From positions 108 to 64,107 of the forward strand of contig CANQWY010000002.1 of NCBI GenBank assembly GCA_947627675.1: a stretch of 64,000 nucleotides of DNA, given 5' to 3'. This document shows, in pieces, positions 5,619 to 62,643 of the stretch. The stretch's first letter is position 1. Each line of letters begins with the position of its first letter. A program made the position numbers and the translations under genes. Origin of the DNA: an uncultured Bacilli bacterium. GTDB lineage: Bacteria; Bacillota_I; Bacilli_A; RF39; UBA660. Below the pieces are notes generated by a model. It ran no database searches, had not been told where the DNA came from, and was given only the letters and a program-made list of their open reading frames with translations.

Positions 5619-7284
5619 TCACCAAACAACAAGAGAAAGACGTGAAGCATTTTGCTTATCGCCTGAACCAGTATTGTATATAAAGCCGAAAATACCATTT
5701 TGATTAATATAATTATAGGCACCGCCACAATCAAACCAAGGGTAGGTAGAATTTACAAACTTTTGATAATCTCCATAAAAGCCAGCTGTTCCATCGGCAT
5801 TTGTTGCATCTCCTTTGATTCCAGCACTGCTTGTATATAAATTATAATATTTTCTTTCTGGCATAGGATTAAATCCAGAATTATATACACTATTATTTAA
5901 GCTTCCCATTGTTTTCTCAAAAGCACCTCCTACTGTATCATATATTCCATAGATGGTTCCGGTTGTTGATGCTCCGGTTCCAGCTATTTCTTCATAATAC
6001 TGATGTTGACAACTATTACTTATACTAGCACTTGGGCTTCCTCCACTACAGCTTGTCTTAAATCCACTATAATTATTAGTATAAATCTCTTTATTAGCAT
6101 TTTTATAATTTGAATTTCCATATTTTCCATATTTACTTTGACTTAAGTATGCCATCGCTCCCCATTCCGTATTCTTTATCATATGCGTATCATAATTTTC
6201 TCCGCTTAATCCATAATTATTGGTACCGTTAGTACCGTTTATTTGGCTCTTTATGTTATTAAAAAATGATGAATGACTTTGATTTCTTATACTTGTTTGA
6301 TTAGGTAATGAAGTTATTGCACTTATTGCTCCAGTTAACTCGAATTTGCTTATCCAAATTCCTGGTAATTCTTTATTTTCTGAATTACTTCTGGTTGTTT
6401 CTACATCACAACTGTTGCCCCAACAAAATGATGAGGGTGTATAATAATTACTTGGCGTTGTTCCGGTGTATTTACCTGCTCCTTTTTCGGTTGTAGTCGT
6501 ATTTACAAATTTGATATCGAATGCTCCGGGTGTATTGATACTTGGTGATGATGCTCCTTCTATTTGATAGCCATATTGATCCCTTAATGTATAACTATAT
6601 CTTGGGATCCATACTAACATTAAGTTTACATCATTTAAATCTATTGTTGTTCCTGATGCTGCAGTTTTATATGTTGCTCTCTTAGATGGATCTTTTATCG
6701 TTACAGCATTAGCCCATATTTGTTTATCATAGTTATACCAGCTATTATTTGTATTTTCTTTATCTGCTTTTGCCCAACTACTTCCATTCCAAACTACCGG
6801 GATCATATCTCCTACTAACTCTGGTGCATTTGGTTCATTATTGTAATAGTCTTTTGTTTCTACTTTTAGTTTCCCTTTATAACTTCCTGTCCCTGTAAAT
6901 GTTATTGTTATTTGTACACTTTCTCCTACTTTTAAGTTCGCTTCTTCTATTGTTTTACTTGCTAAAGTCCCTGTTGTTGTCGTACCGTTCTTTGTATAAC
7001 TATAACTTATATTTACATCTTCTATATCTTCAACATACAGTCTATAACTTGCATCTTCTATTCCTCTATTTTCTATTGTAAATGTATATGTTTTATTTAA
7101 TTCGATATTTTCTTTATCTGAACCATTTACTCCATATATTCCTATATATCTTGTCCCTGTTTTTATTGTTATTTCTTTTTTTGTTTCTATACTCTTACTA
7201 TATTTGGCGTAAGTAACCCCCCCCCATTAGAACTATTGTTAGTATTAGGGGTATTACTAACAATATATCTTTTCTTTTTTCCAT
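5619..7284 (-). CDS. Phase-variable SipW-signal/camelysin(TasA)-like large secreted protein, copy A (OFF state as sequenced)
   Basis: ATG at 7284 with an AGGAG RBS. It encodes MEKRKDILLVIPLILTIVLMGGG and then reaches a stop 8 codons after a C9/G9 homopolymer (7217-7225). Removing one G fuses it in frame to the 395-aa ORF 5619..6806, giving about 554 aa. The N-domain resembles TasA/camelysin and the C-domain is Cys-containing and G/Y/N-rich. Confidence 0.7.
7217..7225. repeat. Poly-G/C homopolymeric tract (9 nt) inside the signal-peptide region of copy A
   Basis: taaCCCCCCCCCatt on the plus strand. A 9-mer G/C run is extremely unlikely by chance in roughly 25% GC DNA. Its position sets the reading frame. 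Confidence 0.85.
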
Positions 7285-7490
7285 TTTCTTTCTCCTTCTA
7301 TTTTTATATCTATATAATACACTCAATTCAAAATATTTGCAAATAAAGTACTAAAACTTTTTAATAGACATTTTACAATTTTAAACAGGAACTATCATTC
7401 CTTTAAATTAAATAATTTTACATCTTTTAAATTAAAAAAGCACCTATTAATAATTAGGTGAATTAATTATACTATATATTAGTATTAATT

Positions 7491-7943
7491 TTATTGTTCC
7501 AACTCTAAATCCTCTTCATCTAGTACAACTAAATCTTTTAAATCTTCAGTTGTATCTTCATATGATGAATCATCACTATAATCATCTTCTACTTCTTCAT
7601 TTAATATTTCATCTTCATCTGGCAATTCTTCTTCCTCATCATCATCCTCTACTTGACTAACTTGCTTTTTGATTTTATCGGATGTATGATTACTTCTTAA
7701 ATCCCAGCTACCATCTTCTAATAATATAAATCTTTTATCTGTTGATAAAGAAGTATAATAATCTCCAATTTTATTTTCAAATGTAGTTTTTGGTAATTCC
7801 AAAAGCTCAATTATTTTTTTAAATAATTCTGCTGTATTCATTGGCTTTTTAGATTCTTCTAAAATCATATTAGTTATATCTTTATTAGAAAGCAATTCTA
7901 ACTCTTCTTTTTTCATTTTATTAATACTCATATTATCCTCCAT
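7491..7943 (-). CDS. rpoE: DNA-directed RNA polymerase delta subunit
   Basis: 150 aa with an N-terminal HARE-HTH-like domain and a strongly acidic D/E-rich C-terminal tail, as in Firmicutes RpoE. Confidence 0.75.
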   Translation of the reverse strand: MEDNMSINKMKKEELELLSNKDITNMILEESKKPMNTAELFKKIIELLELPKTTFENKIGDYYTSLSTDKRFILLEDGSWDLRSNHTSDKIKKQVSQVEDDDEEEELPDEDEILNEEVEDDYSDDSSYEDTTEDLKDLVVLDEEDLELEQ

Positions 7944-8042
7944 TCAAGTCATTATATGTTATTATCTATAACTTGTTTAACATTTTTATATAAAACATCA
8001 AGAATATGTATATCATACATTCATTTCTTATGCAATATATTT

Positions 8043-9788
8043 TTACATTTTTTCTGGAACTTCTATTCCTAAAATAGATAAAATTTCCATATTTGTTTTA
8101 TAAACTAATTTTGTCAATGCTAACCAAGATTCTTTTAATTCAGAATCTTTTTCTATTAGAATCTTATTTTCATTGTAGAAAGTATTATAACTACTAGTAA
8201 GTTTATAAATATAATCAGTTAAATCATTTAAAGACTTTTCTTCTAAACTTTTAGTTAATACTTGCGGTAATCTTAAAAGTAGTAGAGCAGGGGACCTATC
8301 AGAATTATTTTTAAATTTTTTAATAGCACAATTGCTAATTTCTGACTTATTTAAAAGTGATCTCATTCTAATTGTAGAATACAATAAATATGGCCCTGTT
8401 TTACCTTCTAAACTTATAAATTTTTCTGGATCAAATATGTAATCAGTTGATCTATATGGAATTAGATCAGCATATTTTAATGCTGCAATTGCTATTTTTT
8501 TAGAAGTTTCTAAAATTTGATCTTCTTCTACTATATCTTTATTTATTCTTTTTAATACCTCATCTTGCAATATGTTTATTAAATCTTTTAGACTCATAAC
8601 TCCGCCATTTCTTGTTTTAAATGGCTTACCGTCATTTCCATTCATAGTACCAAAACCAAAAAATTCTAATTTCAAGTTTTCATCTACAAGTTTACTTTTT
8701 TTGGCAGCTCTAAATATTTGTTTGAAATATAAAGATTGTCTAAGATCCGCAAAATACCATATTTCATCAAGTTTAAACCTATCGACTCTTGAATATATTG
8801 TTGCAAGTTCACGAGTTGCATAAAGAGTAGCTCCATTTCTTTTTATAACTACTAAAGGAGGCATTGGAGAATTATCACTATCTTCTTTAACATCTATTAC
8901 CTTAGCATCCTCGCTAATAGTTAGATAATTATTTTCTTCCAAATATTCAATCATTTTAGATATATAAGGATAGCATGTTGACTCTCCTTCGTATAAATCA
9001 AAAGTTGTATTAATATCTTTATATACCTGTTTTATATCTTTTATTGAAACTTCTTTGATCTTGTTCCATAGTGCTTGATATGCTTTATTACCATTTTCTA
9101 ATTGTTTAGTTATTTCAACAACTTCTTCCATTCTTTTTTTATTATTTTTAGCATCTAATGATGCCAAAGGATATATTTCGCCTAATTCCTCAGGAGTTAT
9201 ATTATAATCTATGTCATCATAATTCCCTTCATAATTTTCATCAAAATAGGGCAGAGTAGGATATCTTCTTTTAATTTCTGAAATAACCATCCCAGATTGT
9301 CTACCAATATCTCCAAAATGTACATCGCTTATTACTTCTAACCCTAAATATCTTGCAAGACGTTTTATAGCTTCACCAATATTAGCAGAACGAAGATGAC
9401 CTACATGTAAAGTTTTTGCAACGTTGGCTCCACCATAATCCATAAAAATTGTCTTTGGCTCTTCTTTATCAACATTGATACTAAAATCTTCTAACATTCT
9501 ATTTAAAGATGTGTTTAAAAAATATGGACTTAGTGTTAAATTTATGAATCCTGGACCTGCTATATTTAAATTTATAAAACGAGAATCTTTTTTTAACAAA
9601 TTTAAAATATCATTTGCAATATCTATAGGATTCTTATTATAACTTTTAGAAAGACGCATTGCATCATTTATCTGAAAATCACCTAAATCAGGTCTTGATG
9701 ATGGAACAAAAGTTATATCATCTATATCATATCCTGCTTTATTTATTATTTCTATTATTGAATATTTCAAATCTTTTAGTATACTCAT
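8043..9788 (-). CDS. argS: Arginine--tRNA ligase
   Basis: 581 aa with class I HVGH motif, DALR anticodon-binding region and overall ArgS architecture. Confidence 0.9.
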   Translation of the reverse strand: MSILKDLKYSIIEIINKAGYDIDDITFVPSSRPDLGDFQINDAMRLSKSYNKNPIDIANDILNLLKKDSRFINLNIAGPGFINLTLSPYFLNTSLNRMLEDFSINVDKEEPKTIFMDYGGANVAKTLHVGHLRSANIGEAIKRLARYLGLEVISDVHFGDIGRQSGMVISEIKRRYPTLPYFDENYEGNYDDIDYNITPEELGEIYPLASLDAKNNKKRMEEVVEITKQLENGNKAYQALWNKIKEVSIKDIKQVYKDINTTFDLYEGESTCYPYISKMIEYLEENNYLTISEDAKVIDVKEDSDNSPMPPLVVIKRNGATLYATRELATIYSRVDRFKLDEIWYFADLRQSLYFKQIFRAAKKSKLVDENLKLEFFGFGTMNGNDGKPFKTRNGGVMSLKDLINILQDEVLKRINKDIVEEDQILETSKKIAIAALKYADLIPYRSTDYIFDPEKFISLEGKTGPYLLYSTIRMRSLLNKSEISNCAIKKFKNNSDRSPALLLLRLPQVLTKSLEEKSLNDLTDYIYKLTSSYNTFYNENKILIEKDSELKESWLALTKLVYKTNMEILSILGIEVPEKM

Positions 9789-9790
9789 TT

Positions 9791-10159
9791 TTATTCTCCC
9801 TCTTGTTTTTCTATTTTAAATATATATTTTTCATGATTTAATTCATATTCTATTTGTATTTTATTATTATCCTTTAATATTTTATTTGTAAAAATTTCTA
9901 AATCTAATGAATTATTTACTTTTTTTAAAAACAGATTATTAACAGTTGTTTGATTTTCTATAAAGTTTAATACCATATATATTTCTTCATTATCTCTTTT
10001 CAAAATATTACTAGTATACTCATATAATACAAAAGTTTTTTTTGCATCATTTTCTAGATAAAAAAGAGATTTATTTTTTTCATCAACTGTTATATTTACT
10101 TTATAATTTATTTTTTCATTATAATTACCTACAGTTACAAGTGCTTTAAAATTTCTCAT
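9791..10159 (-). CDS. DUF1934 (YwiB-like) protein
   Basis: Small 122-aa protein immediately upstream of and co-oriented with argS. The ywiB-argS pairing is conserved in Firmicutes. Confidence 0.45.
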   Translation of the reverse strand: MRNFKALVTVGNYNEKINYKVNITVDEKNKSLFYLENDAKKTFVLYEYTSNILKRDNEEIYMVLNFIENQTTVNNLFLKKVNNSLDLEIFTNKILKDNNKIQIEYELNHEKYIFKIEKQEGE

Positions 10160-10293
10160 TTTTACTCCTAAAATAATACTATATTATCATTAATAAAATA
10201 ACTAAAAATTCAGCTTAAATTATAGCATAAGTTTTAAAAAAATAATACATATTTTTAAGCATTTGTATAATACTAAATATGAAGGTGAATTCT

Positions 10294-12252
10294 ATGAAGC
10301 ATTTCAAGATAATAAAAAAACTTTTATTTTTAGGAATATTTTGTACCTTTTGTATTTTTATTGGAATTTTCTTATATGCAAAATTGTCCCCAAAATTAGA
10401 AATAAAAGCTGCAAATAGCATTGCAATTTATGATAATAGTCAGACTGTTTTTTTCCATGGAAGTGATAATAAGGAATGGGTTAGTTTGAAAGATATTTCT
10501 AATAATGTAATTATGGCAACTATTTCTACTGAAGATAAAAATTTTTACAAACATAAAGGCTTTGATCTTTTAAGAATTCTAAAAGCTACATATATTAATA
10601 TTATTAATAGATCTACTAAACAAGGTGCTTCAACTATCTCTCAACAATATGCTAAAAATCTATTTCTAGATTTTGATAAAACTTGGAAAAGAAAGTGGGA
10701 TGAAGCTTTATATACTATCAGATTAGAATCTAATTATAGTAAAGATGAAATACTTGAAGGGTATTTAAATACTATAAATTATGGTCATGGAATGTATGGA
10801 ATAGAAAATGCTAGTAATTTTTATTTTAATAAAAAAGCTAAAGATTTAGACTTAGCAGAAGCAACTATATTAGTAGGTGTTCCCAAATCTCCGAGTAATT
10901 ATTCTCCGCTAGTAAATTATGATATTGCAAAAAAAAGACAAAAAGTAATTTTAGATTTAATGGTTAAAAATAAATATATCAAAAAAGATGAAGCAACTAA
11001 TGCATATAATGAAGAACTAAAATTTTATGGAAAGAAAGATGAAAATAATTCCACCACATTGATGTATTATCAAGATGCTGTTTTAGCAGAGTTGAAGAAA
11101 ATAGATAGCATTCCTAAAAATTATACTGACACTAAAGGATTGAAAATATATACTAATCTAGATATAAATGCACAAACAAATCTTGAAAAGAATATCACTG
11201 AAGAATTAGTTGAGGAAAATGACTTACAAGCATCTGCTATTATGATGAATCCTAATAATGGAGGTATTATTGCCCTTGTTGGCGGTAGAGATTACAATAA
11301 ATCACAATATAATAGAGCAACTACTGCCAAAAGACAAGTTGGTTCTACTATGAAGCCTTATTTGTATTATGCTGCATTAGAAAGTGGTTTTACAACTAGT
11401 AGTTCATTTACCAGCGAAAAAACTACTTTTACTTTTTCTGAAAGAGATGATTATTCACCAAAGAATTATAATGAAAAATACGGAAATAAAGCCATCTCTA
11501 TGGCTACTGCTGTTAGTTATTCAGATAATATTTATGCTGTCAAGACTAATTTATTTTTAGGAAGTGATTCAATGATTAATGTTGCAAAAAGAGTAGGGAT
11601 TACAGCAAAATTAGAAGATGTTCCATCGCTTCCTTTAGGGACCAATGAAATTTCAATGATTGAAATGACAGCAGGTTATGCAGCCTTTGCTAACTTAGGG
11701 TATAAAGTACATCCCCATTTAATTGAAAAAGTAGAAGATAACGATGGCAATGTATTATATAAAGCTAATAATAACAAAAATTTAGTTTTGAATTCAAGTA
11801 TTGCATATATTTTAAATAATATGCTAACAGCAACTTATGATCCTCTTTATATTGATTATAACTATCCAACAGCTATTGGCCTTTCATCAAAACTTAAGCA
11901 TACTTATTCTTTAAAAAGTGGTACCACTGATACAGACGAATGGTATATTGGGTATAATAGTGATGTTGTAACATCAGTATGGCTGGGCTATGATGATAAT
12001 CAAAACATACCATCCAAAGCTGCTTTATATGCTCAAAATATTTGGTATAAAAGCATAGAAAGTTATGAAGAAGGAAAAGAAGATAATTGGTATGTTAAGC
12101 CAGATAACGTTTCAGCGGTTTTGGTTGATCCAATTTCAGGGAAAGCTGTTGATAATAATGCTGAAAAAAAGAAATTAATGTATTTTATAAAAGGTACAGA
12201 GCCAACAATAAATCAATCAGTTTTTGATGAAAAGCTAAACATAATACAATAG
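10294..12252 (+). CDS. ponA: Class A penicillin-binding protein (PBP1A; glycosyltransferase + transpeptidase)
   Basis: N-terminal TM segment. GT51 motifs (EDKNFYKHKGFD, ...QQYAKN) and transpeptidase STMKP (SxxK) motif. The likely start is the second ATG (10294) behind an AGGTGA RBS; the ORF track starts at 10279. Confidence 0.85.
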   Translation: MKHFKIIKKLLFLGIFCTFCIFIGIFLYAKLSPKLEIKAANSIAIYDNSQTVFFHGSDNKEWVSLKDISNNVIMATISTEDKNFYKHKGFDLLRILKATYINIINRSTKQGASTISQQYAKNLFLDFDKTWKRKWDEALYTIRLESNYSKDEILEGYLNTINYGHGMYGIENASNFYFNKKAKDLDLAEATILVGVPKSPSNYSPLVNYDIAKKRQKVILDLMVKNKYIKKDEATNAYNEELKFYGKKDENNSTTLMYYQDAVLAELKKIDSIPKNYTDTKGLKIYTNLDINAQTNLEKNITEELVEENDLQASAIMMNPNNGGIIALVGGRDYNKSQYNRATTAKRQVGSTMKPYLYYAALESGFTTSSSFTSEKTTFTFSERDDYSPKNYNEKYGNKAISMATAVSYSDNIYAVKTNLFLGSDSMINVAKRVGITAKLEDVPSLPLGTNEISMIEMTAGYAAFANLGYKVHPHLIEKVEDNDGNVLYKANNNKNLVLNSSIAYILNNMLTATYDPLYIDYNYPTAIGLSSKLKHTYSLKSGTTDTDEWYIGYNSDVVTSVWLGYDDNQNIPSKAALYAQNIWYKSIESYEEGKEDNWYVKPDNVSAVLVDPISGKAVDNNAEKKKLMYFIKGTEPTINQSVFDEKLNIIQ

Positions 12253-12309
12253 GGTAATAAAGTTATTTAATTATACATATAATTATGATGTAGAGGAGAG
12301 AAATTTTAT

Positions 12310-12600
12310 ATGAATAATAATTATATGTATCCTAATTATCAAGGAAATAGCATGAGAGTAATGCCCAATAGTAGAGCAAGTCAATTACAGAATCCTTATT
12401 CCGATAGTATATTATCACATTATTTAGGAAAGAAAGCTTCTTTTTATTTAACTTTTAATGATTCAAATGAATGGAGAGATACTATTTTCAAAGGTACCAT
12501 TCAAGATACTAATAGTGATTATACAATTATTTCAGATGACACTACAAATAAACCTATATTAATGTGGAATAAATTTATTGACTACATTATTTTCGATTAA
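12310..12600 (+). CDS. gerQ: GerQ-like spore coat protein
   Basis: C-terminal region YLGKKASFYLTFNDSNEWRDTIFKGTI...IISD...ILMWNKFIDYIIFD matches the conserved GerQ/YwdL C-terminal domain as recalled from memory. Good RBS. Confidence 0.5.
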   Translation: MNNNYMYPNYQGNSMRVMPNSRASQLQNPYSDSILSHYLGKKASFYLTFNDSNEWRDTIFKGTIQDTNSDYTIISDDTTNKPILMWNKFIDYIIFD

Positions 12601-13215: not shown

Positions 13216-13219
13216 AATT

Positions 13220-26310: not shown

Positions 26311-27804
26311 CTAGTAATTACTGTTTTTATCTATTCTTATTAATATTTGATATTGATTTTCAAAATTCATTTCATCAGTATCTATCTTAGCACCATGAAG
26401 TTCTAAGTTTTTTAAGGTTTTTCGTATTTCATCTACTATTTGTCTAATATTATATTCTTCTTCTCCATTCCTTTTATTATTATTTAAATTTTCATCCATT
26501 AGAACATTACCTAAAGATTTATTAGACTTATTTATTTTTTGTTCTTCTTTTATTGGTTTTTGAAATAATGTTTGGTTGATATCCACTAATGACTCTTTAT
26601 GGTCAGTAGTTGGCTTTGATGATTTAGCAAATTCTATTAAACTATTATTAGAAGCTGCTTGATTACTAAACATATCTCCAAGGTCTGATTTAGGTATTTC
26701 GCCTGTATTAGGTAACTCTATTGACATCAAATTAGGAGCTGAAAAATAATCTTCTTTGTTATTATAATTTTTATTTTCGCTTTCTCTCAATGCTTCTTCA
26801 GCTGGAGTAAATTTTTTATTATCTTCATTATTATCATTAACAAAAGTAGGTTTAATATTTAGTAAAGTATCTAAATCTGATTTATTATTAGATTCTGTTT
26901 TTGAATCTATTGAAGAATTTATATCTTCTAAATCTTTAGTATTGTTTCTTAAATCCATTAAATTTATCGGTTTAGATAGAAGTGAAGAATTGTCACCATT
27001 TAAATCAGGATATTTTTCATTTTCTTCTTCTTCATTATCAATTTCACCATAATTTATTATTTCGCTATTTTTAGAATCATTAGGAGGAGTCATTAAAAAA
27101 CTTGGCATCTTATTTAGATTATTACTTTCTATTGAAACTGGTGTTGGGTTTATGAGATTTTTTAAATCTTTTTCATCTTTTATCTTATCATCATTCATAT
27201 TAATTTCCTTTATCTCATTTTCTAATTGTCTTACTGTCATCTTTTGTTTTATCACTTTTTTTAACATTTCTACTTGTTTATCATGATCATTCAAATTTAG
27301 TAAAGTCCTAGCATGTCTCTCTGAAATTTCTTCTTTCAGTAAAGATTTTTGAACCTCTTCTGTCAAAGAAAGTAACCTTAATTTATTTGCAACTGCTGAC
27401 TGGCTTTTACCCATAGTTTTAGCTAAACCCTCTTGTGTCATATCATCAAGTTCTATTATTTTTTGATATGTTCTAGCTTCTTCTATTGGATTTAAATTTC
27501 TTCGTTGTAAATTTTCCAATAATGCTACTTTAGCAGCTTCCTTATCATCTAAATTTCTAATTATCGCAGGTATTGTTGTTAATCCAGCAAGTGCAGATGC
27601 TTTATATCTTCTTTCACCTGCAATTATTTCATATTTACTCTCACTTATTTTCCTTACTATTATAGGTTGTATAACACCATGTTCTTTGATAGATACTGCT
27701 AATTCTTTCAAAGCTTTTTCATCAAAGAGTTCACGAGGTTGAAATCTATTAGGTATTATATCATCCAGATGTATATATATTACTTCCTGATTATCATTCA
27801 TCAA
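26311..27804 (-). CDS. noc: Noc-like ParB paralog with long low-complexity C-terminal extension
   Basis: ParB N-domain with GERRYKAS box II and an HTH. It occupies the noc position (rsmG-noc-soj-spo0J order). 497 aa, with an N/D/E/K/S-rich tail of about 300 aa. It has no N-terminal amphipathic-helix extension. Confidence 0.65.
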   Translation of the reverse strand: MMNDNQEVIYIHLDDIIPNRFQPRELFDEKALKELAVSIKEHGVIQPIIVRKISESKYEIIAGERRYKASALAGLTTIPAIIRNLDDKEAAKVALLENLQRRNLNPIEEARTYQKIIELDDMTQEGLAKTMGKSQSAVANKLRLLSLTEEVQKSLLKEEISERHARTLLNLNDHDKQVEMLKKVIKQKMTVRQLENEIKEINMNDDKIKDEKDLKNLINPTPVSIESNNLNKMPSFLMTPPNDSKNSEIINYGEIDNEEEENEKYPDLNGDNSSLLSKPINLMDLRNNTKDLEDINSSIDSKTESNNKSDLDTLLNIKPTFVNDNNEDNKKFTPAEEALRESENKNYNNKEDYFSAPNLMSIELPNTGEIPKSDLGDMFSNQAASNNSLIEFAKSSKPTTDHKESLVDINQTLFQKPIKEEQKINKSNKSLGNVLMDENLNNNKRNGEEEYNIRQIVDEIRKTLKNLELHGAKIDTDEMNFENQYQILIRIDKNSNY

Positions 27805-34439: not shown

Positions 34440-34660
34440 TAATAATTATTAACTTATATAATATAGTTATATGTTTTCCACATAATTAACATACTTGTGT
34501 ATATCTTTTTTTTAACTGTTTATAAAAAAAATTGTGGAAAATGTGGATAAGTTGTTTTTTCTTTTATGAAACAATATTATCTTTTGTGGAAAAAATTGTG
34601 AATTACTTGTGGATTAAATTTTTTATTATTTTTTTATTTATTTTTTCCACAAATTGATTT
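34440..34660. promoter_or_regulatory. oriC upstream DnaA-box cluster (rpmH-dnaA intergenic)
   Basis: Perfect TGTGGATAA at 34543-34551, plus at least 5 one-mismatch boxes (TGTGGAAAA twice, TGTGGATTA, TTTTCCACA twice) in both orientations. Confidence 0.75.
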
Positions 34661-34701: not shown

Positions 34702-36060
34702 ATGAATGTTGAGGTCCTATGGACCAACTTTTTACAAAAGATAAAAGAAGAACTATCTTCTCTAGCATTTGATACTTGGTTTAAAGATACAAAACTCTTT
34801 AAATTAGAAAATAATAAAGCTATTATTGTTGTTCCTATGCCTATTCATAAAAAGCATTTATCGGATAATTATGAAGAACAAATAAAGTTTATTTTAAATA
34901 CTATTACTGGTAATAATTATGATATCGAATTTTTTTTAGAAGAAGAAATAAAAGAAAGTACTATCAAACAACAAATAGAAGACATTCCTACTAATAAAGT
35001 TGATAATAAAATTAACAACAATCTAAATAGTAAATACTCATTTGAAAATTTTATAGTTGGAAATAGTAATAAATTTGCTCAAGCCGCAGCCTTATCGGTT
35101 GCTGAAAACCCTGGAAAAATGTATAATCCACTATTTATATATGGAAATAGCGGACTTGGAAAAACACATTTAATGCATGCTATTGGTAATTATATCGTTA
35201 AAAATAGCAATAAAAGAGTTTTATATGTAACAAGTGATCAATTTATCCAAGATTTTATCGGTATTAATAAAAAAGATAATACTGGAACAAATTTTAATTA
35301 TGTTGACTTTTTTAAAAACAAATATAGAAATGTTGATGTTTTAATAATAGATGATATTCAATTTCTAGGTGGTGCTACTCAAACTCAGCAGGAATTTTTC
35401 CATACATTTAATACTTTATATAGTGACTCTAAGCAAATAATTATTTCATCTGATAGATCACCTGATGATTTAAAACTTCTAGAAGATCGTCTTAGAACTC
35501 GATTTTGTTGGGGACTTACTGTTAACATTTTTCCTCCAGATTTTAATCTTAGAGTAGAAATTATCAAAAGAAAAATAATAGCTGGTAATTTTGAAAAAGA
35601 AATACCAGAAGATGTTATAGAATATATCGCTTCTAATATGGGAAATGATGTTAGACAATTAGAGGGATCTATAACAAGGCTCGTTGCCTATTCTGCTATT
35701 ATGGGGGGAACCTCAATTACATTGTCTCTTGCAATTGAAGCCTTAAAAGATTTTATAAGTAAAGGCATTAGTGAAAAAAACGATATTCATAGAATACAAA
35801 AAGTAGTTGCAGAATTTTTTCAAATTAGTGTTGAAGATATTAGAAGTAAAAAAAGAAGTAGTAATATTGCATTTCCAAGACAAATAGCAATGTATTTATG
35901 TAGAAACATAACCAATGAATCTTTTCCTAAAATAGGAACAGAATTTGGAGGCAAAGATCATTCTACTGTTATGCACTCAGTAGAAAAAATATCTCAAGAA
36001 ATAAAAGTTAATAAAGATTTAGATAATATAATAGAAAAATTAAAAAAAGATATTGGCTGA
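34702..36060 (+). CDS. dnaA: Chromosomal replication initiator DnaA
   Basis: 452 aa. AAA+ Walker A GNSGLGKTHL. C-terminal DnaA-box-binding domain. Confidence 0.95.
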   Translation: MNVEVLWTNFLQKIKEELSSLAFDTWFKDTKLFKLENNKAIIVVPMPIHKKHLSDNYEEQIKFILNTITGNNYDIEFFLEEEIKESTIKQQIEDIPTNKVDNKINNNLNSKYSFENFIVGNSNKFAQAAALSVAENPGKMYNPLFIYGNSGLGKTHLMHAIGNYIVKNSNKRVLYVTSDQFIQDFIGINKKDNTGTNFNYVDFFKNKYRNVDVLIIDDIQFLGGATQTQQEFFHTFNTLYSDSKQIIISSDRSPDDLKLLEDRLRTRFCWGLTVNIFPPDFNLRVEIIKRKIIAGNFEKEIPEDVIEYIASNMGNDVRQLEGSITRLVAYSAIMGGTSITLSLAIEALKDFISKGISEKNDIHRIQKVVAEFFQISVEDIRSKKRSSNIAFPRQIAMYLCRNITNESFPKIGTEFGGKDHSTVMHSVEKISQEIKVNKDLDNIIEKLKKDIG

Positions 36061-36202
36061 TATGTGGATATTTTCATTAATAAACTTTTTTTTCCACAAA
36101 CTATTTTTAAAAAAAATATTTATAAAATATGAAAAAATATTGTTTTCCACATTTTCCACAGTTATAATAATAATATCTATAAAAAAGAAAGAAGGAATAT
36201 AG
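36061..36202. promoter_or_regulatory. oriC downstream DnaA boxes + AT-rich unwinding region (dnaA-dnaN intergenic)
   Basis: TGTGGATAT at 36063, TTTTCCACA three times (36090, 36144, 36153), and a run of more than 90% AT between them. Confidence 0.7.
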
Positions 36203-37333: not shown

Positions 37334-37470
37334 AAACAATATTTAAGAAGATCAACTAGATCTTTTTATTTTTTTAGTCTATCCTACAAAATACGATAAA
37401 TATCGACTAAGAAATATGCTATTATTTGTTTAGAAAACGAGAAAAAAGTCGTTTTCTAGGGGGAGAAAAT

Positions 37471-37938
37471 ATGAAAAAAGAATATGAAATTAATGATGGA
37501 ACATTAGCAGTTATATCTTTAAAAGATGGAAATTCTAAAATATTGGAGGATAATCAAAATTATATTGTGTCTTGTAGTAGCTTTGATATTTTAGATCATA
37601 GTTGTAAATATTTTGGCAGTAGTTATTTAGGAAGGAAAGAAGGCTCAAAATCAATGATTGGTGCTAGTTATAAATTACCTATTGTAATTGAAGACTCTCG
37701 TGATATTGTCTTTTTTCCAACATCTAGTCCTGAGGATAGTGAATGTATATGGATTGCAGTTAATAAAATTGTTACTTTTAATCAAGAAAAATATAATACA
37801 ACTAAAATCATTTTTGAAAATGGAATAGAGCTTATTGTTCCTTTATCATATAGGTCGGTTGAAAATCAAATTTATAGAGCAACTAGATTGACTTATCTAT
37901 TAAAAACTCATAAATCTAATAATAGAAATAGGATATAA
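37471..37938 (+). CDS. comK: ComK-family competence transcription factor-like protein
   Basis: Strong similarity to the B. subtilis ComK core (YEINDGTLAV..., SCKYFGSSYLGRKEGS..., KLPIVIEDSRDIVFFPTSSPEDSECIWI...) as recalled from memory. The start is taken at the second ATG behind a GGGGGAG RBS; the ORF track starts at 37426. Confidence 0.7.
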   Translation: MKKEYEINDGTLAVISLKDGNSKILEDNQNYIVSCSSFDILDHSCKYFGSSYLGRKEGSKSMIGASYKLPIVIEDSRDIVFFPTSSPEDSECIWIAVNKIVTFNQEKYNTTKIIFENGIELIVPLSYRSVENQIYRATRLTYLLKTHKSNNRNRI

Positions 37939-44764: not shown

Positions 44765-45335
44765 AATTATTTCCCGGGAAATAATTTAAAACTTTTTATT
44801 TATAGAAATTTCAAATTTTAATTTTTTAATTAAAAATAATTTGATAACATTTTTTAAGAAATTAATTCATTTATAAAAATATTATCATTATTTAGTATTA
44901 ATAAAAAATATAAACTCAAACTTGATATTTTTTAAAGATTAACGTTTCACGTGAAACATTGTATTTTTTTCTTATTCTTATCATTAAATTTTTTTAGGAT
45001 ATTATTTCCCGGGAAATAATTTAAAACTTTTTATTTATAGAAATTTCAAATTTTAATTTTTTAATTAAAAATAATTTGATAATATTTTTTAAGAAATCAA
45101 TTCATTTATAAAAATATTATCATTATTTAGTATTAATAAAAAATATAAATTCAAACTTGATATTTTTTAAAGATTAACGTTTCACGTGAAACATTGTATT
45201 TTTTTCTTATTCTTATTATTAAGTTTTTTTAGGATATTATTTCCCGGGAAATAATTTAAATAATTATAATGTTTCACGTGAAACATAAAGAAATAAGCAG
45301 TTATTAAATAAAAAAAATATTTCCCGGGAAATATT
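44765..45335. repeat. 235-bp direct tandem repeat (2 full units + partial) carrying alternating NBS and parS palindromes
   Basis: NBS ATTTCCCGGGAAAT at 44769, 45004, 45239 and 45319. parS at 44943 and 45178 (CGTTTCACGTGAAACA, 15/16) and at 45270 (TGTTTCACGTGAAACA, 16/16). Unit period is exactly 235 bp with near-identical units. Confidence 0.85.
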
Positions 45336-45391
45336 TTGAAATAGATAATATAAATAAATTGCTTTTTTTAATAGTTTATTATAAAATGTAA

Positions 45392-45473
45392 TCGTGCAAT
45401 AAATTTATGTGGAAACAGGTCAGGATCGGAAGATAGCAGCCTTAACACAATAGATTTATGTGCACTTTTTTTT
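45392..45473 (+). ncRNA. ffs: Signal recognition particle RNA (small 4.5S-type SRP RNA)
   Basis: Conserved domain IV sequence CAGGUCAGGAUCGGAAGAUAGCAGCC flanked by a pairing helix (GTGCAATAAATTTATGTGG / CACAATAGATTTATGTGCAC) and a T8 run. Located next to tadA and dnaX, as in Bacillus. Confidence 0.6.
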
Positions 45474-55919: not shown

Positions 55920-56039
55920 AAATATTATACTTCTTACTTAAATAACCAAAAATATAAATACCCCTTCTTTTTCTTGCACATGATATTTTGCAATGTTATA
56001 ATAAATACTATACAAAAGTAGAAAGAAAATAGGTGTTTT

Positions 56040-56687
56040 ATGAGCGAATTAGATGAAATAAAAGAACAGTCATTAAATAATTATAAATTAGCAGTACAAG
56101 AAATTATAAATAATAATACATTATCTTTATTAGAAGATGATATTATGAGTTTGCTAAAAAAACCACCTCTTGATTCTATGGATATTATAAAAAATAAATT
56201 TTTATTAGTAGCAAAAAGAGAAAATATTATATTAAATACCGTTAACTTAGATAAAAAATTAGAAATATATCGTGAAAGAATAAATAAAGATATAATTTTT
56301 ATAAAGAATATAAGAATAGATATGTTATCTAAAACTGTATCAAATTTTAATCCTAAAAAAGAATTTGATACTATAAAGATAACTAAAAAAGATTTATCTT
56401 CTGTAAATAAAAAGATTAATAGCCAATTAAAGGAAAAAATAAAAATTAATATTAATAGATTTATAATAGATGAAATTATTAATATCTATAATGGCATTAA
56501 TAATATACAATATAATAAAATATACAATGAGTTATCTAAGTATTTTAGAACAGTCTATCAAAAACAATTAGTGGAAAATATAAATATTAAAATATTAGTT
56601 AAGGATACAACACTTATAAATGGAGTAAAAGAACAAGGAGAAAGATATATTTTTACTAAAACAAATTCTAGAATTAATGATTTATAA
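56040..56687 (+). CDS. Hypothetical protein
   Basis: 215-aa ORF between mfd and spoVT. No family recognised. Confidence 0.3.
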   Translation: MSELDEIKEQSLNNYKLAVQEIINNNTLSLLEDDIMSLLKKPPLDSMDIIKNKFLLVAKRENIILNTVNLDKKLEIYRERINKDIIFIKNIRIDMLSKTVSNFNPKKEFDTIKITKKDLSSVNKKINSQLKEKIKININRFIIDEIINIYNGINNIQYNKIYNELSKYFRTVYQKQLVENINIKILVKDTTLINGVKEQGERYIFTKTNSRINDL

Positions 56688-56778
56688 TTGATTGATTAAA
56701 TTATCATTTTTTCTTTCTTTTTTGAATAAAATCAAGAAAATTAGAGAAAATAACTATAGATAAGAAAGAGAGGAATAT

Positions 56779-57309
56779 ATGAATACGACAGGAATAGTAC
56801 GCAGAATTGATGATTTAGGTAGAATAGTAATTCCTAAAGAAATAAGAAAAACATTAAGAATAAAAGAAGGAGATCCTTTAGAAATTAGTATTATTAATGA
56901 TAATATTTTATTAAAGAAATACTCTTCAGTAGAAGATTTTGAAAATATGTTTAATATTTTTATTGCAAAAATTAATGATATCATTAATAAAAATATATTA
57001 GTTTTTGATAGGGATAAAATAATATGTGCAAATGGTGATTTAAAACTTTCTAATTATAAAGATAAAAATATATCTACTAATTTATATAAAATGATGGAGG
57101 AAAGAAAAATAAATTGTATTGGGAATTCTTCATTAGAAGTTATAGAACAAGATTTGATTATAGATAATTATATATTTTCTAGCATTATTACAAATGGTGA
57201 TGTAATAGGAGGAGTTTTGATATATTCTGAAAAAAATGATATTGATGATCAAGATAAGATGTTTTTAAGTTTAATTATAAATATTTTTGTTAAATATATT
57301 GAAGAATAA
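56779..57309 (+). CDS. spoVT: Stage V sporulation protein T (AbrB-N + GAF-like)
   Basis: N-terminal AbrB/MazE swapped-hairpin domain (TGIVRRIDDLGRIVIPKEIRKTL). 176 aa. Conserved position after mfd. Confidence 0.7.
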   Translation: MNTTGIVRRIDDLGRIVIPKEIRKTLRIKEGDPLEISIINDNILLKKYSSVEDFENMFNIFIAKINDIINKNILVFDRDKIICANGDLKLSNYKDKNISTNLYKMMEERKINCIGNSSLEVIEQDLIIDNYIFSSIITNGDVIGGVLIYSEKNDIDDQDKMFLSLIINIFVKYIEE

Positions 57310-57329
57310 TTTTATAAATGATATAATTA

Positions 57330-57600
57330 TACTGATTTAAATGTATAGAAGAAGAGGTTATTATACTGATAATTTAAGAGAGTTTCTGGTTGGTGAAAAG
57401 AAATATTATTGTTTAATAATTATGGCTTTGGAACTATTATATTGATATGTAAATATAATCGTATATAGGCGTTAACTATTTGAGTGTATAATAAAGTTAT
57501 TATAAAGTAAGGTGGTACCACGGATTTAGATTCGTCCTTATATGTTATAATGACTTTTTATTTTTATAAATAAGCATAATATTAAATTTAGATTAAAAAA
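57330..57600 (+). promoter_or_regulatory. T-box riboswitch leader of metG
   Basis: T-box consensus AGGTGGTACCACGG at 57510-57523, followed by U-rich terminator/antiterminator region. About 300-nt leader. Confidence 0.6.
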
Positions 57601-57626
57601 TATATAATAGAATAGGATGTGTTTTT

Positions 57627-59147
57627 ATGAAAAAAAAATTTTATATTAGTACAGCAATTGCATATACTACATTTAAACCACATATAGGAAATACTTATGA
57701 AGTTGTTTTAGCAGATAGTATTGCTAGATTTAAAAGATTGCAAGGATATGATGTTTATTTTCAAACAGGTACTGACGAACACGGTAATAAAATTCAAGAA
57801 AAAGCCGAAGAAAAAGGCATTAGTCCTAAAGAATATGTTGATAATATTTCAAATGAAATTAAAAAAATTTGGGATTTGATGGATACTAGTTATGATAAGT
57901 TTGTAAGAACAACAGATGAACATCATGAACAAATAGTAAAAAAGATATTTAAAAAAATGTATGATAAAGGTGATATTTATAAAGGAGAATATAAAGGACT
58001 TTATTGTACTCCTTGCGAATCATTTTGGACAGAATCTCAATTAGATGATAATGGTTGTTGCCCTGATTGTGGAAGAGAAGTAAAAGAAGCAAAAGAAGAA
58101 GCCTATTTTTTTAAACTTTCTAAGTATCAAGATAGATTACTAAAATATATTGAAGAAAATCCAGATTTTATTCAACCTTCATCTAGAAAAAATGAAATGA
58201 TAAATAACTTTCTAAAACCTGGTTTACAAGATTTATGTATAACTAGAACTAGTTTTGATTGGGGAATACAAATTGATTTTGATCCTAAACATGTTATATA
58301 TGTCTGGCTTGATGCTTTAACTAATTATATTACTAACATAGGATATGATCCTGATGGATCAAGTGACGAATTTGCTAAGTATTGGCCATGTGATATCCAT
58401 TTAATAGGAAAAGATATTATTAGATTTCATGCAATTTATTGGCCTTGTTTTTTATGGAGTCTTGACTTACCTCTTCCAAAAAAAGTCTTTGGACATCCTT
58501 GGCTTTTAATGAATAATGATAAAATGAGCAAAAGTAAAGGTAATGTGATATATGCTGATTCTTTAGTTGAGAAGTATGGAGTAGATGCAGTTCGCTATTA
58601 TTTATTACATGAAATTCCATATTCAAGTGATGGAAATATTAGTTATTCCCTAATAGAAGAAAGAATTAATAGTGATCTTGCAAATATTTTAGGTAATCTA
58701 GTTCAAAGAACAATTTCGATGGGAAACAAATATTTTAATTGTATTATTGTAAATAAAGAAATAACAGACAAATTAGATTCAGAATTTATTAATAAAATAA
58801 ATCAGTTAAATGAAAAAGTTTGCTCTGATATGGATTCACTACATATTGCTAATAGTATTGATGATATATTCAATTTATTAAGAGATAGTAATAAATATAT
58901 TGATGAAACAATGCCTTGGAACCTTGCAAAAGATGACAACAAAAAAGATAGATTAGAAACTGTAATTTATAATTTATTAGAGTCTATTAGAGTATGTGGA
59001 TTATTACTTAGTTCATATATGCCTAGTACAAGTAAAAAAATTCTAAAACAATTAAATAATAATAGAAATGAGCTTAATTATGTTAAAGATAATCAATATA
59101 AATTGAATAATCCAGAACCACTTTTCATGAGGATTACAAATAAATAG
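57627..59147 (+). CDS. metG: Methionine--tRNA ligase (short form)
   Basis: Class I HIGH (KPHIGNTYEV) and KMSKS motifs. Zinc knuckle CTPCE...CPDCG. 506 aa. Confidence 0.9.
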   Translation: MKKKFYISTAIAYTTFKPHIGNTYEVVLADSIARFKRLQGYDVYFQTGTDEHGNKIQEKAEEKGISPKEYVDNISNEIKKIWDLMDTSYDKFVRTTDEHHEQIVKKIFKKMYDKGDIYKGEYKGLYCTPCESFWTESQLDDNGCCPDCGREVKEAKEEAYFFKLSKYQDRLLKYIEENPDFIQPSSRKNEMINNFLKPGLQDLCITRTSFDWGIQIDFDPKHVIYVWLDALTNYITNIGYDPDGSSDEFAKYWPCDIHLIGKDIIRFHAIYWPCFLWSLDLPLPKKVFGHPWLLMNNDKMSKSKGNVIYADSLVEKYGVDAVRYYLLHEIPYSSDGNISYSLIEERINSDLANILGNLVQRTISMGNKYFNCIIVNKEITDKLDSEFINKINQLNEKVCSDMDSLHIANSIDDIFNLLRDSNKYIDETMPWNLAKDDNKKDRLETVIYNLLESIRVCGLLLSSYMPSTSKKILKQLNNNRNELNYVKDNQYKLNNPEPLFMRITNK

Positions 59148-59258
59148 TAGACATATTTTTTGTCAACTTATATAAACTTAGTATAAAAACATTTTGATAC
59201 TAGGTTTTTTTATGGTATATTCAATTTGTAGTAAAAAAATTTACAGAGGAGAAAAACT

Positions 59259-59429
59259 ATGTCAGATGATACTATTAGTAAGCTAATTAATTTGGATAGT
59301 ATATATGCTTTAAGTTGTATTTTTTTACTCTTGTTAATAGAAAGCGATAGAAATATATTAGATGTTATATATTTATTTGTTGTAACTTTCTATTATATTA
59401 GAATAAAAGTTCATAGAAAGAAATCATGA
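59259..59429 (+). CDS. Small hydrophobic protein (56 aa)
   Basis: Hand-found ORF with AGAGGAG RBS, MSDDTISKLINLDSIYALSCIFLLLLIES... Below the ORF-track length cutoff. Confidence 0.3.
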   Translation: MSDDTISKLINLDSIYALSCIFLLLLIESDRNILDVIYLFVVTFYYIRIKVHRKKS

Positions 59430-59471
59430 TTTTTTATAAGTTATGTTTTTTTTGTTTTAGGAGGTATTTAT

Positions 59472-60233
59472 ATGTATATTGATACACATTGTCATATTTC
59501 AAAAGATTATTATTCAGATATAGATAAAATTATAGAAGAAAATAAAAAAAATTTTATTGATAAAATAATTATTTCTGGTTGTGATAAGAAAAGTATTATT
59601 GAGAGTATTGATATATCTAATAAGTATAAAGATATATATTTATGTATAGGATATCATCCTGATGAAGTAGGAAAAATAACAAATTTTGATATAGTTATTG
59701 ATGAACTAGAAAAAATTGTTAGTAGTAATAAGAAAATAGTTGCTATAGGTGAAATAGGATTAGACTATTTTCATAATAAGGAAAATAAAGATTTGCAAAT
59801 AAAATTTTTTGAAAAACAACTTTCGTTAGCGGAAAAATTAAAATTGCCAGTAGTTATTCATTCTAGAGAAGCTACAATGGATACAATTAATTGTTTAAAG
59901 AAATTTAATGTTACTGGGGTAATCCATTGTTTTAGTGGTAGTTTAGAAACTGCTAATATATATATTAAAATGGGATTTAAACTAGGAATAGGAGGAGTTG
60001 TAACTTTTAAAAATTCTAAATTAGTAGAAGTTGTAAAAAATATTGGTTTAGATAATGTAGTTTTGGAAACTGACAGTCCTTTTTTAGCTCCAGAGCCATA
60101 TAGAGGTACCATTAATAGTTCAAAAAATATTCCTATAATTGCAGATAAAATTGCCAGCACTCATAATATATCAAAAGAAGATGTTGGGAAAATTACTAGC
60201 GATGTGGCTCGTAAAGTTTTTAAATTAGATTAG
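59472..60233 (+). CDS. tatD: TatD-family deoxyribonuclease
   Basis: HCH N-terminal motif (IDTHCH), 253-aa TIM-barrel hydrolase. Follows metG, as does yabD in Bacillus. Confidence 0.85.
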   Translation: MYIDTHCHISKDYYSDIDKIIEENKKNFIDKIIISGCDKKSIIESIDISNKYKDIYLCIGYHPDEVGKITNFDIVIDELEKIVSSNKKIVAIGEIGLDYFHNKENKDLQIKFFEKQLSLAEKLKLPVVIHSREATMDTINCLKKFNVTGVIHCFSGSLETANIYIKMGFKLGIGGVVTFKNSKLVEVVKNIGLDNVVLETDSPFLAPEPYRGTINSSKNIPIIADKIASTHNISKEDVGKITSDVARKVFKLD

Positions 60234-60243
60234 TTTTATATAA

Positions 60244-60873
60244 AAAGAAAAAAATAAAACATCAAAACAAGTATTATTATCAGTACTTGGAGTAGCAATT
60301 TTGATTGTTGCTGTTGTAGGTATTTCATTCGCTGCTTTTACTTATACTAAAACAGGAGTTCAAGAAAACACTATTTCTACTGGTACCGTTACTATGTCTT
60401 ATACTGAAGGTCAAAATGGTATAAATATTGAGAATGCTATTCCTATGACCGATACTCAAGGTAAGGCTTTAACAGGTGATAATAATGTCTTTGATTTTAC
60501 TGTTTCTGCCACTATCACTGGTAAGACAACTATTAACTATGAGGTTGTTGCTGTTAAAGACTCCTCAAGTACAATTTCTGATGATAGTATTAGATTATAT
60601 CTAGAAGATAGTGATCAACAAAACGAAGGATATGAAGAAGTATTTGGCCCTGCTAAATTTACTGGAATATCATCACCATCTACATATGGAGCCCCAACAG
60701 GAACGATGCAACTTGCACAAGGTTCGTTTACTAATAATGCTGATGATGGTGCTCAAACTACAATTACTAAATATTATCGCTTAAGAATGTGGGTTGATTC
60801 ATCTTATGAACTTACTGGTACTTCTCAAAAATATAAAGTTACTGTTAACGTCTATGGTAAAGGTCAAGATTAA
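60244..60873 (+). pseudogene. Camelysin/TasA-like N-domain paralog lacking a canonical start codon
   Basis: The open frame begins right after a stop at 60241 with a complete SipW-type signal-like sequence (KEKNKTSKQVLLSVLGVAILIVAVVGISFAAFTYTKTG) but no ATG or GTG; the first possible start is TTG at 60301, inside the hydrophobic region. The body resembles the TasA beta-sandwich N-region. Confidence 0.45.
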
Positions 60874-60995
60874 GATTAAATTAAGGAGAGCGTAAGGTCT
60901 TTTTTATTTTTAGAGATAATGCTAGAAGAATAAAGTACTTGAAAATAAAAAATAGATGATGTAGAATTTAAATATAAAATAGAAGGAGAAAGAAA

Positions 60996-62643
60996 ATGGA
61001 AAAAAGAAAAGATATATTGTTAGTAATACCCCTAATACTAACAATAGTTCTAATGGGGGGGGGTTACTTACGCCAAATATAGTAAGAGTATAGAGACTAA
61101 AAAGGAAATAACAATAAAAACAGGGACAAGATATATAGGAATATATGGAGAAAACAAAGAAAATATAGAATTAAATAAAGAATATACATTTACAATAGAA
61201 AACAGAGGAGCAGAAAACGCAAGTTATAGACTATATATCGAGAATATAGAAAATAGTAGTATAAGTTATAGTTATACAAAGAACGGAATAACAACAACCG
61301 GAACATTAGCAAGTAAAACAATAGATGAAGCCAATTTAAAAGTAGGAGAAAAAGTACAAATAACAATAACATTTAGCGGAAGTGGAAATTATAAAGGAAA
61401 ACTAAAAGTAGAAACAAAAGACTATATTAATGAACCAAATGCACCAGAGTTAGTAGGAGATATGATCCCAGTAACATATAATGGAACAAACTGGGTAAAA
61501 GCAGATATAAATAAAAACAATTGGTATGATTATAATAGAGGAGTCTGGGCGAATGCTGTAACGATAAAAGATGCAAATAAAAGAGCAACATACAAAAGTG
61601 CTCAAGCAGGAACACTAATAGATTTAAGTTATGTAAACTTAATGTTAGTATGGATCCCAAGATACTCATATACATTAAGACAATCATATGGATATCAAAT
61701 AGATGGAGCATCAACCCCAAGCATTAATACACCCGGAGCATTTGATATCAAATTTGTAAAGACAAGTACAACCGAAATGGGAAGCGGAAAATATAGTGGA
61801 GAAGAACCAACAGGCTATTTTACACCCTCATCATTTTGTTGGGGCAACAGTTGTGATGTAGAGTCGACGAGAGGGAGCTCAGGAAATACAGAATTATCTG
61901 GAATCTGGATAAGTAAGTTTGAGCTTACTGGAACAATAAGTGTAATAACATCAAAACCAAATGAAACAAGTATAACAAATCAAAGCACATCTTCGTTCTT
62001 TAATGCTATAAAAACACAGATAAATGGAAGTAGTGGAACAACAAATTATGGATTAAGCGGAGAAAATTACGATACGCATATGATAAAGAATACGGAATGG
62101 GGAGCAATGGCATATTTAAGTCAAAGTAAATATGGAAAATATGGTAATTCAAATTATACAGGAGCAAATAAAGAGATTTACATAAACAATTATAGTGGTT
62201 ATAAAACAGGATGTAGTGGAGGAAGTCCAAGTGCTAGTCAAAGTTCTAGTTGCCAATATACTTATAATATAGAAACAAATGGAACCGGAGCCAGTACTAC
62301 TGGAACAATATATGGAATATATGATACATCAGGAGGAGCTTATGAAAGAGTGATGGGGAACTTTAATAATGTGCTACCAGCTTCTAGATTTAATTCCATG
62401 CCAGAAAGAAAATATTATAATTTATATACAGGAACAATAGGAATCAAAGGAGATGCAATAAATGCAGATGGAACGGCAGGTTTTTATGGAGATTATCAAA
62501 TATTTGTAACTTCTTCTCAACCTTGGTTCCAACGTGGCGGTTACTATGGCAATGGTGTTATCGCGGGCGTCTTCAGCTTCTACTACAGCAATGGCGATGC
62601 TATCCACTACCGCGGTTCACGCTTTGCTATTTCTACTTGGTAA
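60996..62643 (+). CDS. Phase-variable SipW-signal/camelysin(TasA)-like large secreted protein, copy B (OFF state as sequenced)
   Basis: ATG 60996 with AGGAG RBS, then MEKRKDILLVIPLILTIVLMGGG, a G9 tract (61055-61063) and a stop 8 codons later. With G8 it reads through LMGGVTYAKYSKS... into ORF 61462..62643, giving about 548 aa. It is 90-95% identical at the nucleotide level to copy A over the 5' 150 nt. Confidence 0.7.
61055..61063. repeat. Poly-G homopolymeric tract (9 nt) in the signal-peptide GG(G) motif of copy B
   Basis: taatGGGGGGGGGttac. Identical in length and context to the copy A tract. Confidence 0.85.

Follow-up and report, generated by a model that had tools for sequence, protein, structure and literature searches.

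The 64,000-nt stretch of DNA analyzed here (the window) comes from an uncultured Bacilli bacterium and carries, toward its two ends, two paralogous genes for predicted surface proteins, copy A and copy B. The genes point away from each other and from a replication origin that lies between them, and together they form an inverted repeat around a segment of 54 kb. This arrangement is probably the ordinary outcome of a large, co-oriented, phase-variable gene family with members near the origin. As such a pair is an expected by-product of a large family whose genes are co-oriented with replication, it needs no special explanation. The window comprises nearly all of a 64,384-nt contig of a short-read metagenome-assembled genome (MAG) with a GC content of 25%, and the two genes and their repeats are located in it as follows:

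ATG 7284, stop 5619, minus strand: copy A, family gene, frameshifted (predicted off) at G9; G8 gives 554 aa
ATG 60996, stop 62643, plus strand: copy B, family gene, frameshifted (predicted off) at G9; G8 gives 548 aa
5721..7325, minus strand: left repeat arm, with 83% identity to its partner on the right
60957..62541, plus strand: right arm of the inverted repeat, pairing with the left arm
7186..7304, minus strand: 119-nt 5' module of copy A, a perfect match to 60976-61094, with G9 at 7217-7225
60976..61094, plus strand: 119-nt 5' module of copy B, with G9 at 61055-61063

A preliminary description of this DNA had presented the two genes as a large inverted repeat, with starts at 7284 (reading leftward) and 60996 (reading rightward). 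The coordinates are right, and both alignment methods recovered the repeat: a repeat search returned five colinear inverted segments (5715-7304 against 60976-62547), and blastn of 7325..5721 against 60957..62541 gave a single alignment of 1615 columns at 83.1% identity (E = 0). Copies A and B are recent paralogs, and the identity between them is distributed unevenly. Their 5' regions are 98% identical, with a near-identical part of 179 nt, while identity in the last ~100 nt is only ~52%. The longest perfect identity measures 119 nt and spans the ribosome-binding site, the ATG, the signal peptide, and the G9 tract; the next longest stretches are 46, 42, 42, and 35 nt. No changes at all occur in the first 30 codons, while synonymous changes are found throughout the remaining gene. 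The lack of any divergence in the 119-nt module suggests recent gene conversion, either between the two copies or across the family. Upstream of about -20 to -40 nt from the ATG, the sequences are unrelated, which means that the promoter regions of the two genes differ. A promoter scan detected a promoter-like site ~30 nt 5' of each ATG, but shuffled sequence has as many such sites, so the promoters can be placed only tentatively. The proteins encoded at G8 are 76% identical. The corresponding 24% of amino acid differences is high relative to the synonymous differences (~15-20% of conserved codons), a pattern that suggests diversifying or relaxed selection over the whole protein and not at the 3' end alone.

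For the same strain, an independent assembly exists (ENA ERZ27248994, ~9x coverage). One of its contigs, of 53,537 nt, corresponds to window positions 7255-61026 and ends ~30 nt inside each copy, and a second one, of 7,181 nt, corresponds to positions 1-7096 and continues 85 nt beyond the left end of the window. The unique parts of each arm are 100% identical in these contigs, which end before the G-tracts. Duplication of one gene by the assembler was considered as an origin of the pair and ruled out by the 17% difference between A and B, together with the 100% identity of each arm in the independent contigs. As to orientation, this assembly is uninformative, since it breaks at both repeats, and either a shared repeat at low coverage or a mixed population would fit; the orientation seen in the window therefore rests on one assembly. 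Among the contigs retrieved by exact-protein look-ups, no recombinant flank combinations were found; all showed the same orientation, were truncated, or represented an unrelated locus.

By gene order, the window is centered on a Firmicutes-type origin, with rsmG-mnmG-mnmE-jag-yidC-rnpA-rpmH on one side and dnaA-dnaN-comK-recF-gyrB-gyrA on the other:

34474..34651, no strand: DnaA-box cluster preceding dnaA, with the minimum of the cumulative G-C curve at 34494
34702..36060, plus strand: dnaA
36063..36180, no strand: second DnaA-box cluster in the dnaA-dnaN spacer (boxes at 36063-36160), a candidate unwinding site

Transcription runs away from the origin, and is thus co-oriented with replication, in 47 of the 50 open reading frames (ORFs) of at least 150 aa (~94%). 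Copies A and B conform to this, each being transcribed co-directionally with replication on its own, opposite replichore. Given so strong a gene-strand bias, any two family copies on opposite replichores form an inverted repeat, and bacterial inverted repeats are in general found to favor opposite replichores (PMC9297083). Because the inversion of the pair follows from the strand bias, only the similar distance of the two genes to the origin calls for explanation.

That distance depends on where replication starts. The preliminary description had put the origin at ~34.5 kb, upstream of dnaA, and the copies at ~27.2 and ~26.5 kb from it on opposite replichores, both co-directional with replication. 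The DnaA boxes at 34474-34651 and the skew minimum agree with that placement: measured from 34494, the start codons of A and B lie at 27,210 and 26,502 nt, respectively, distances that differ by 708 nt. The spacer between dnaA and dnaN offers a second position, as a tandem DnaA-box pair (TTTTCCACA x2) at ~36143-36180 is directly followed there by TAATAATAATAT. At the Bacillus subtilis origin, DnaA boxes combined with DnaA-trios mark the unwinding site, and by this comparison TAATAATAATAT looks like a Bacillus-type DnaA-trio unwinding element. The start of replication would then move rightward from the skew minimum by ~1.7 kb, and the distances would become ~28.9 kb for A and ~24.8 kb for B. 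Since the start site may be at either DnaA-box cluster, the symmetry is only approximate (3% or 15% off): the close match that had been described holds from the skew minimum, and loosens if replication starts in the spacer.

The preliminary description spoke of the two paralogs, but copies A and B belong to a large family, of which they are two visible representatives. When 5.8 billion proteins were searched, 1,835 of the 8,000 candidates that were scored matched at E <=1e-5, and the species representatives of GTDB contained 478 stretches of the family confirmed by tblastn. Among the best 80 of these 478 stretches, each MAG carried 7-13 family loci, and the MAGs were from uncultured gut Bacilli of mouse, rabbit, and human. 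This puts the family at ~7-15 copies per genome in these relatives. Some 17 of the nearest homologs, at 65-77% identity, have been called from an internal Met (MIPV), as have the two ORFs of the window, which is what an out-of-frame 5' end would give. The best match in the GTDB scan reached only 53% identity, indicating that the species representatives lack the species of the window or its family genes. A scan of JGI metagenomes with copy A detected no close relative and a single distant match at 26% identity.

Two further elements accompany copy B:

60301..60873, plus strand: 190-aa ORF upstream of copy B (region 60234-60873), homologous to an alternative N-terminal domain of other family members
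62841..63899, minus strand: ISNCY-family transposase (NCBIfam E 8.5e-48, under the curated cut-off)

The 190-aa ORF lacks an ATG and has a truncated signal peptide; judging from its sequence, it is probably what remains of a third family gene, situated immediately 5' of copy B. Logan contigs from three runs all stop at 60275, just before the region of its signal peptide, which suggests that the sequence near this position is repeated elsewhere in the genome. The transposase gene is situated just outside copy B, near the contig end.

The position of copy A could be compared with that in a relative. A locus from a rabbit-gut MAG (L074) is syntenic with the left arm of the window over 22 kb, from ssb to murA, and shares with it the order ssb, dnaB, rlmH, udg, the gene for a penicillin-binding protein (PBP), argS, rpoE, prfA, prmC, spoIIR, and murA. 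In the window, copy A separates two of these genes:

7491..7943, minus strand: rpoE-like gene (HARE-HTH domain), inner neighbor of copy A
4354..5412, minus strand: prfA, outer neighbor of copy A

In L074, no family gene is present between rpoE and prfA, which adjoin directly; its family member is instead found between the LemA-like and PBP genes, ~5 kb nearer to the origin. With this site empty and a copy elsewhere, copy A is a lineage-specific insertion, and the positions of the family are not conserved. Likewise, since the genes flanking copy A are those that L074 has side by side, the window has the ancestral, uninverted order. At the left breakpoint, a gene order departing from the ancestral one was not found when the window was compared with L074.

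Each of the two genes carries a putative switch. The G9 tracts of A and B, 60 nt into the gene, are the sole runs of at least seven G or C in 64 kb. In translation, G9 leads to a stop after 28 codons, while G8 or G11 opens a frame of 554 or 555 aa in copy A and of 548 or 549 aa in copy B, so that in the consensus sequence of the window both copies are predicted to be off. As in other cases of homopolymer phase variation, a tract of at least 8 nt in the 5' coding region sets the frame, and the tract recurs in the family. Related loci totaling 1.07 Mb contain 17 G runs of at least 8 nt, and 16 of these occur just upstream of a family member, on the coding strand. In most of these loci, the tract is found between a TTGACA and a TATGAT or TATAAT hexamer (-35 and -10), i.e., in the promoter spacer, with lengths of G10-G13 (L051, L055, L060, L061, L064, L068, L069, L070, L075, L011, and L020). 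Tracts inside the region encoding the signal peptide were seen in the window copies and in two other loci. Read in this way, the poly-G switches of the family would control either transcription or translation. Well-known examples of slipped-strand phase variation are opc and porA of Neisseria, vlp of Mycoplasma, and the poly-G genes of Campylobacter. The genes studied here resemble such contingency loci in that a G9 at the end of the signal peptide sets the reading frame; they differ in belonging to an uncultured lineage of Bacilli and in that their switching is a prediction from sequence.

The product of copy A at G8 consists of a signal peptide, an Ig-like N-domain, and a C-domain that resembles C-type lectins and FGE. 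An AlphaFold (AF2) model built with 55 homologs (pLDDT, the predicted local distance difference test, 88) contains an N-terminal helix, an Ig-like sandwich (residues ~45-145), and a large C-domain. Pfam gave a weak DUF11/Ig-like match for the N-domain and none for the C-domain, and a sequence search of the PDB returned nothing. As sequence searches gave no known domain, only a fold search was informative for the C-domain: the best PDB match was TaqVP (5vf4), a variable protein of a diversity-generating retroelement (DGR) from Thermus aquaticus (E 2.4e-7). In the alignment of the family, divergence is greatest over the last ~40 residues.

Signs of DGRs themselves were found in relatives. Three related loci (L052, L055, and L077) contain, where the 3' part of a family gene ends, DGR elements with pairs of a variable region (VR) and a template repeat (TR) that differ by 22, 10, and 15 mismatches, 95-100% of which fall at TR adenines. 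Near each of the three VR/TR pairs, a reverse transcriptase (RT) motif, IGN(Y/F)TSQ...YMDD, is encoded. The cassettes of L052 and L077 look complete, each with an intact RT of ~360 aa and an Avd-like ORF, whereas target and RT look fragmented in L055. The DGR elements and the corresponding 3' ends in the window have these positions:

L052, 1861-2261 and 3265-4356: DGR elements
L055, 7079-7589: DGR elements
L077, 8842-9233 and 10316-11395: DGR elements
Window 5622..5742, minus strand: 3' end of copy A, aligning with the VR of the relatives' DGR targets; GC 37%, as if decayed
Window 62521..62640, plus strand: 3' end of copy B, aligning with the VR of the relatives' DGR targets; GC 49%, A 18%

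The last 120 nt of copy B contain a run of NNC codons and have a VR-like composition, against the 25% GC of the genome. By alignment, the divergent 3' ends of A and B thus appear to sit where DGR mutagenesis acts in the family. Within the 64 kb of the window, neither a TR/VR pair nor an RT was detected. An RT homolog (P0166) was found on a contig of 19,761 nt, and two close family members are on a contig of equal size, so that size is the only link between them. Compared with known DGR variable proteins such as TaqVP, the family has in common the fold of the C-domain and the variable C-terminal 40 residues, as well as, in the homologs of relatives, VR/TR pairs with nearby RT motifs. The window differs in having no TR or RT, and only the 3' end of copy B is VR-like. 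Further DGR variable proteins with a C-type-lectin fold are Mtd and TvpA.

Taken together, the pair is probably best accounted for by the following course of events. An uncultured, low-GC, spore-forming lineage of gut Bacilli possesses a large family of surface proteins with a signal peptide and Ig-like and C-type-lectin/FGE-like domains. Poly-G tracts would turn its members on and off, and DGRs would diversify them, in relatives at any rate. One copy would have entered the left replichore between rpoE and prfA, and the other would have come to lie on the right replichore, beside a family remnant and an ISNCY element. With nearly all genes near the origin following the direction of replication, copies on opposite replichores would form an inverted repeat. 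These copies, or the family as a whole, would exchange sequence by gene conversion, as the 119-nt module suggests. A harmless inversion centered on the origin would be physically possible, though as a by-product and not as a dedicated device for variation, and the commonest crossover would swap promoters and G-tracts only. The analysis shows the repeat, the origin, the size of the family and its general association with poly-G tracts, the fold, the DGR cassettes of relatives, and the lack of conservation of the copy A site; we infer that the symmetry is coincidental, that gene conversion has acted, and that inversion has no functional role.

Some observations pull the other way. A rough estimate, which assumes 15 randomly placed copies and a genome of 1.5-2 Mb, predicts ~0.1 equally symmetric pairs per genome at 708 nt and ~0.5 at 4 kb. 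For one given pair, a difference of 708 nt in 27 kb is not very likely, and it is suggestive at best of selection or of a mechanism that favors symmetry. In addition, the independent assembly breaks at both repeats, as a mixed-orientation population would also cause it to do. The near-equal distance of A and B to the origin is nevertheless most likely a coincidence, with at most a weak selective filter behind it.

If family copies insert at any position, such a filter would purge inverted pairs whose recombination unbalances the replichores or switches strands, so that mirrored, co-oriented pairs survive near the origin and the symmetry results from selection, not from function. Beyond the preference of inverted repeats for opposite replichores, it has been reported that symmetric pairs disturb gene dosage least (PMC9297083) and that inter-replichore inversions dominate in streptococci (PMC6437910), and the A/B pair is symmetric within 3-15%. 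At a distance of ~27 kb, however, the origin would be displaced by no more than ~1-2% of an assumed ~1.5-Mb genome even if the pair were grossly asymmetric, and selection for precision in the A/B pair should therefore be very weak. The positions of the family, moreover, vary between relatives. We therefore consider selection an unlikely source of the symmetry.

As for inversion itself, the preliminary description had stated that homologous recombination between the copies would leave replichore balance and gene-strand bias unchanged, and this geometry is correct: a crossover between A and B would invert the 54-kb origin segment, keep the strand bias, and barely alter the lengths of the replichores. 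It would also leave each gene with the 5' end of one copy and the 3' end of its paralog. The homology that RecA requires is well established, and the 119-nt perfect stretch within 1.6 kb of homology is long enough for recombination of this type. This module is the most likely site of crossover or gene conversion. Because only promoters and G-tracts (both G9) are exchanged there, a crossover in the module leaves the protein sequences unchanged, while chimeras could arise only from crossovers in the divergent gene body, where identical stretches measure at most 46 nt. The exchange of 3' halves that had been envisaged is thus sound as geometry, but the likeliest crossover would alter no protein. 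No recombinase or invertase was detected among the ORFs of at least 150 aa in the window by Pfam and NCBIfam scans (for a few ORFs, the precomputed Pfam annotations of matching contigs were used); these ORFs were housekeeping, family, or unassigned ones, plus one ISNCY transposase outside the segment. A site-specific invertible element, of the Hin/Gin type or of the tyrosine-recombinase shufflon type, was ruled out, as the window encodes no recombinase.

A precedent for recombination between paralogous surface-protein genes is provided by phtB and phtD of Streptococcus pneumoniae, in which inverted repeats of ~1 kb inside the two genes mediate inversion of a 162-kb segment that contains the terminus (Slager et al. 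2018, PMC6212727; Shelyakin et al. 2019, PMC6437910). This inversion swaps the C-terminal parts of the proteins, and both configurations have been confirmed there, by PCR and by their distribution over the phylogeny. The mechanism itself is therefore already known. Our pair is similar in that inverted paralogous genes for surface proteins occupy opposite replichores. In contrast to the pneumococcal repeats, which are located mid-gene, the perfect identity here is limited to 119 nt at the extreme 5' end, and the segment comprises 54 kb around oriC, not 162 kb with the terminus. Whereas both orientations were demonstrated in pneumococci, the window offers the substrate geometry only, and no second orientation or rearranged order was found. 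Inversions symmetric to the origin or terminus have also been described between rRNA operons, insertion sequence (IS) elements, and prophages (PMC6437910; for Staphylococcus aureus, PMC6778178; PMC9584773), and PMC6437910 cites Eisen 2000 and Tillier & Collins 2000 on symmetric inversions. As in our case, inverted repeats on opposite replichores permit flips that preserve bias and balance; those reports, however, concern actual rearrangements between genomes, while only a substrate is present here.

Against this background, a working switch, in which a RecA-mediated crossover reversibly flips the 54-kb segment and thereby re-pairs promoter and poly-G modules or makes chimeras, seems improbable. 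In its favor are the inverted 1.6-kb homologous tract with its 119 nt of perfect identity, the neutrality of a flip for strand bias and replichore balance, the precedent of phtB/phtD (PMC6212727, PMC6437910), and a second assembly of the same strain that ends ~30 nt inside each copy, which is compatible with mixed orientation. These contig breaks are, however, explained by the repeat alone at 9x coverage, and isomers were not observed in the contigs compared (one assembly, breaking at both repeats). The order in the window fits the ancestral adjacency of rpoE and prfA. A crossover in the identical module would alter no protein, with both tracts at G9, and the stretches available for chimeras are 46 nt at most. 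Variation is also already supplied by slippage of the poly-G tracts and, in the family, by DGR mutagenesis. Both of these processes are known to proceed at far higher rates than inversion. The proposal of the preliminary description that inversion adds a second layer of antigenic variation is unsupported here, and the large family, the strand bias, the position of the module, the gene order of L074, and the lack of a recombinase in the window count against it.

We also give little credence to an error of assembly, in which the joins across the 98%-identical 5' regions would be wrong or arbitrary and the true orientation, or the pairing of gene bodies, would differ. The window is, admittedly, a short-read MAG contig, and the repeats are unbridged in the independent assembly, with its separate contigs of 53,537 and 7,181 nt. 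Yet the unique parts of each arm are 100% identical in those contigs, the rpoE-prfA neighborhood of the relative is reproduced in the window, and the near-identical part is confined to 179 nt, a length within reach of ordinary read pairs.

Least probable is a composite of these processes, in which the pair flips in vivo and re-pairs two promoter and poly-G modules with two gene bodies, slippage, retro-mutagenesis (with the C-terminus of copy B diversified by a DGR), and inversion are linked in a single locus, and the mirrored position is selectively maintained.

If the inversion were to take place, an uncultured gut commensal would have an origin-centered equivalent of the phtB/phtD switch of pneumococci, and the case would call for caution in the assembly of MAGs around origins. 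As the arrangement is better read as a by-product of the family and its orientation, the check on inversion itself is mostly negative in value. As a candidate second layer of variation, DGR activity, which is putative in this genome, has better support than inversion. The more noteworthy lead is the family, which appears to combine poly-G switches, in the coding region or the promoter spacer, with C-terminal hypervariation of the DGR type, and which merits a study of its own.

The remaining genes of the window bear on its host, which appears to be a spore-forming lineage of Bacilli with 25% GC and the standard genetic code. Other features that were recorded are:

2915-3448: gene for SpoIIR
26311-27804: gene for a Noc/ParB-like protein of unusually great length (497 aa)
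37426-37938: ComK-like gene, between dnaN and recF
44766-45322: tandem repeat with a 235-nt unit (2.1-2.4 copies), in the non-coding stretch before the RNA gene of the next line
45390-45471: gene for a small signal recognition particle (SRP) RNA
56779-57309: SpoVT-like gene
57337-57542: T-box leader, upstream of metG

The T-box leader and the SRP RNA both scored above the gathering thresholds of Rfam. At the tandem repeat, the independent assembly (L080) contains ~280 nt extra, indicating that its copy number varies between samples.

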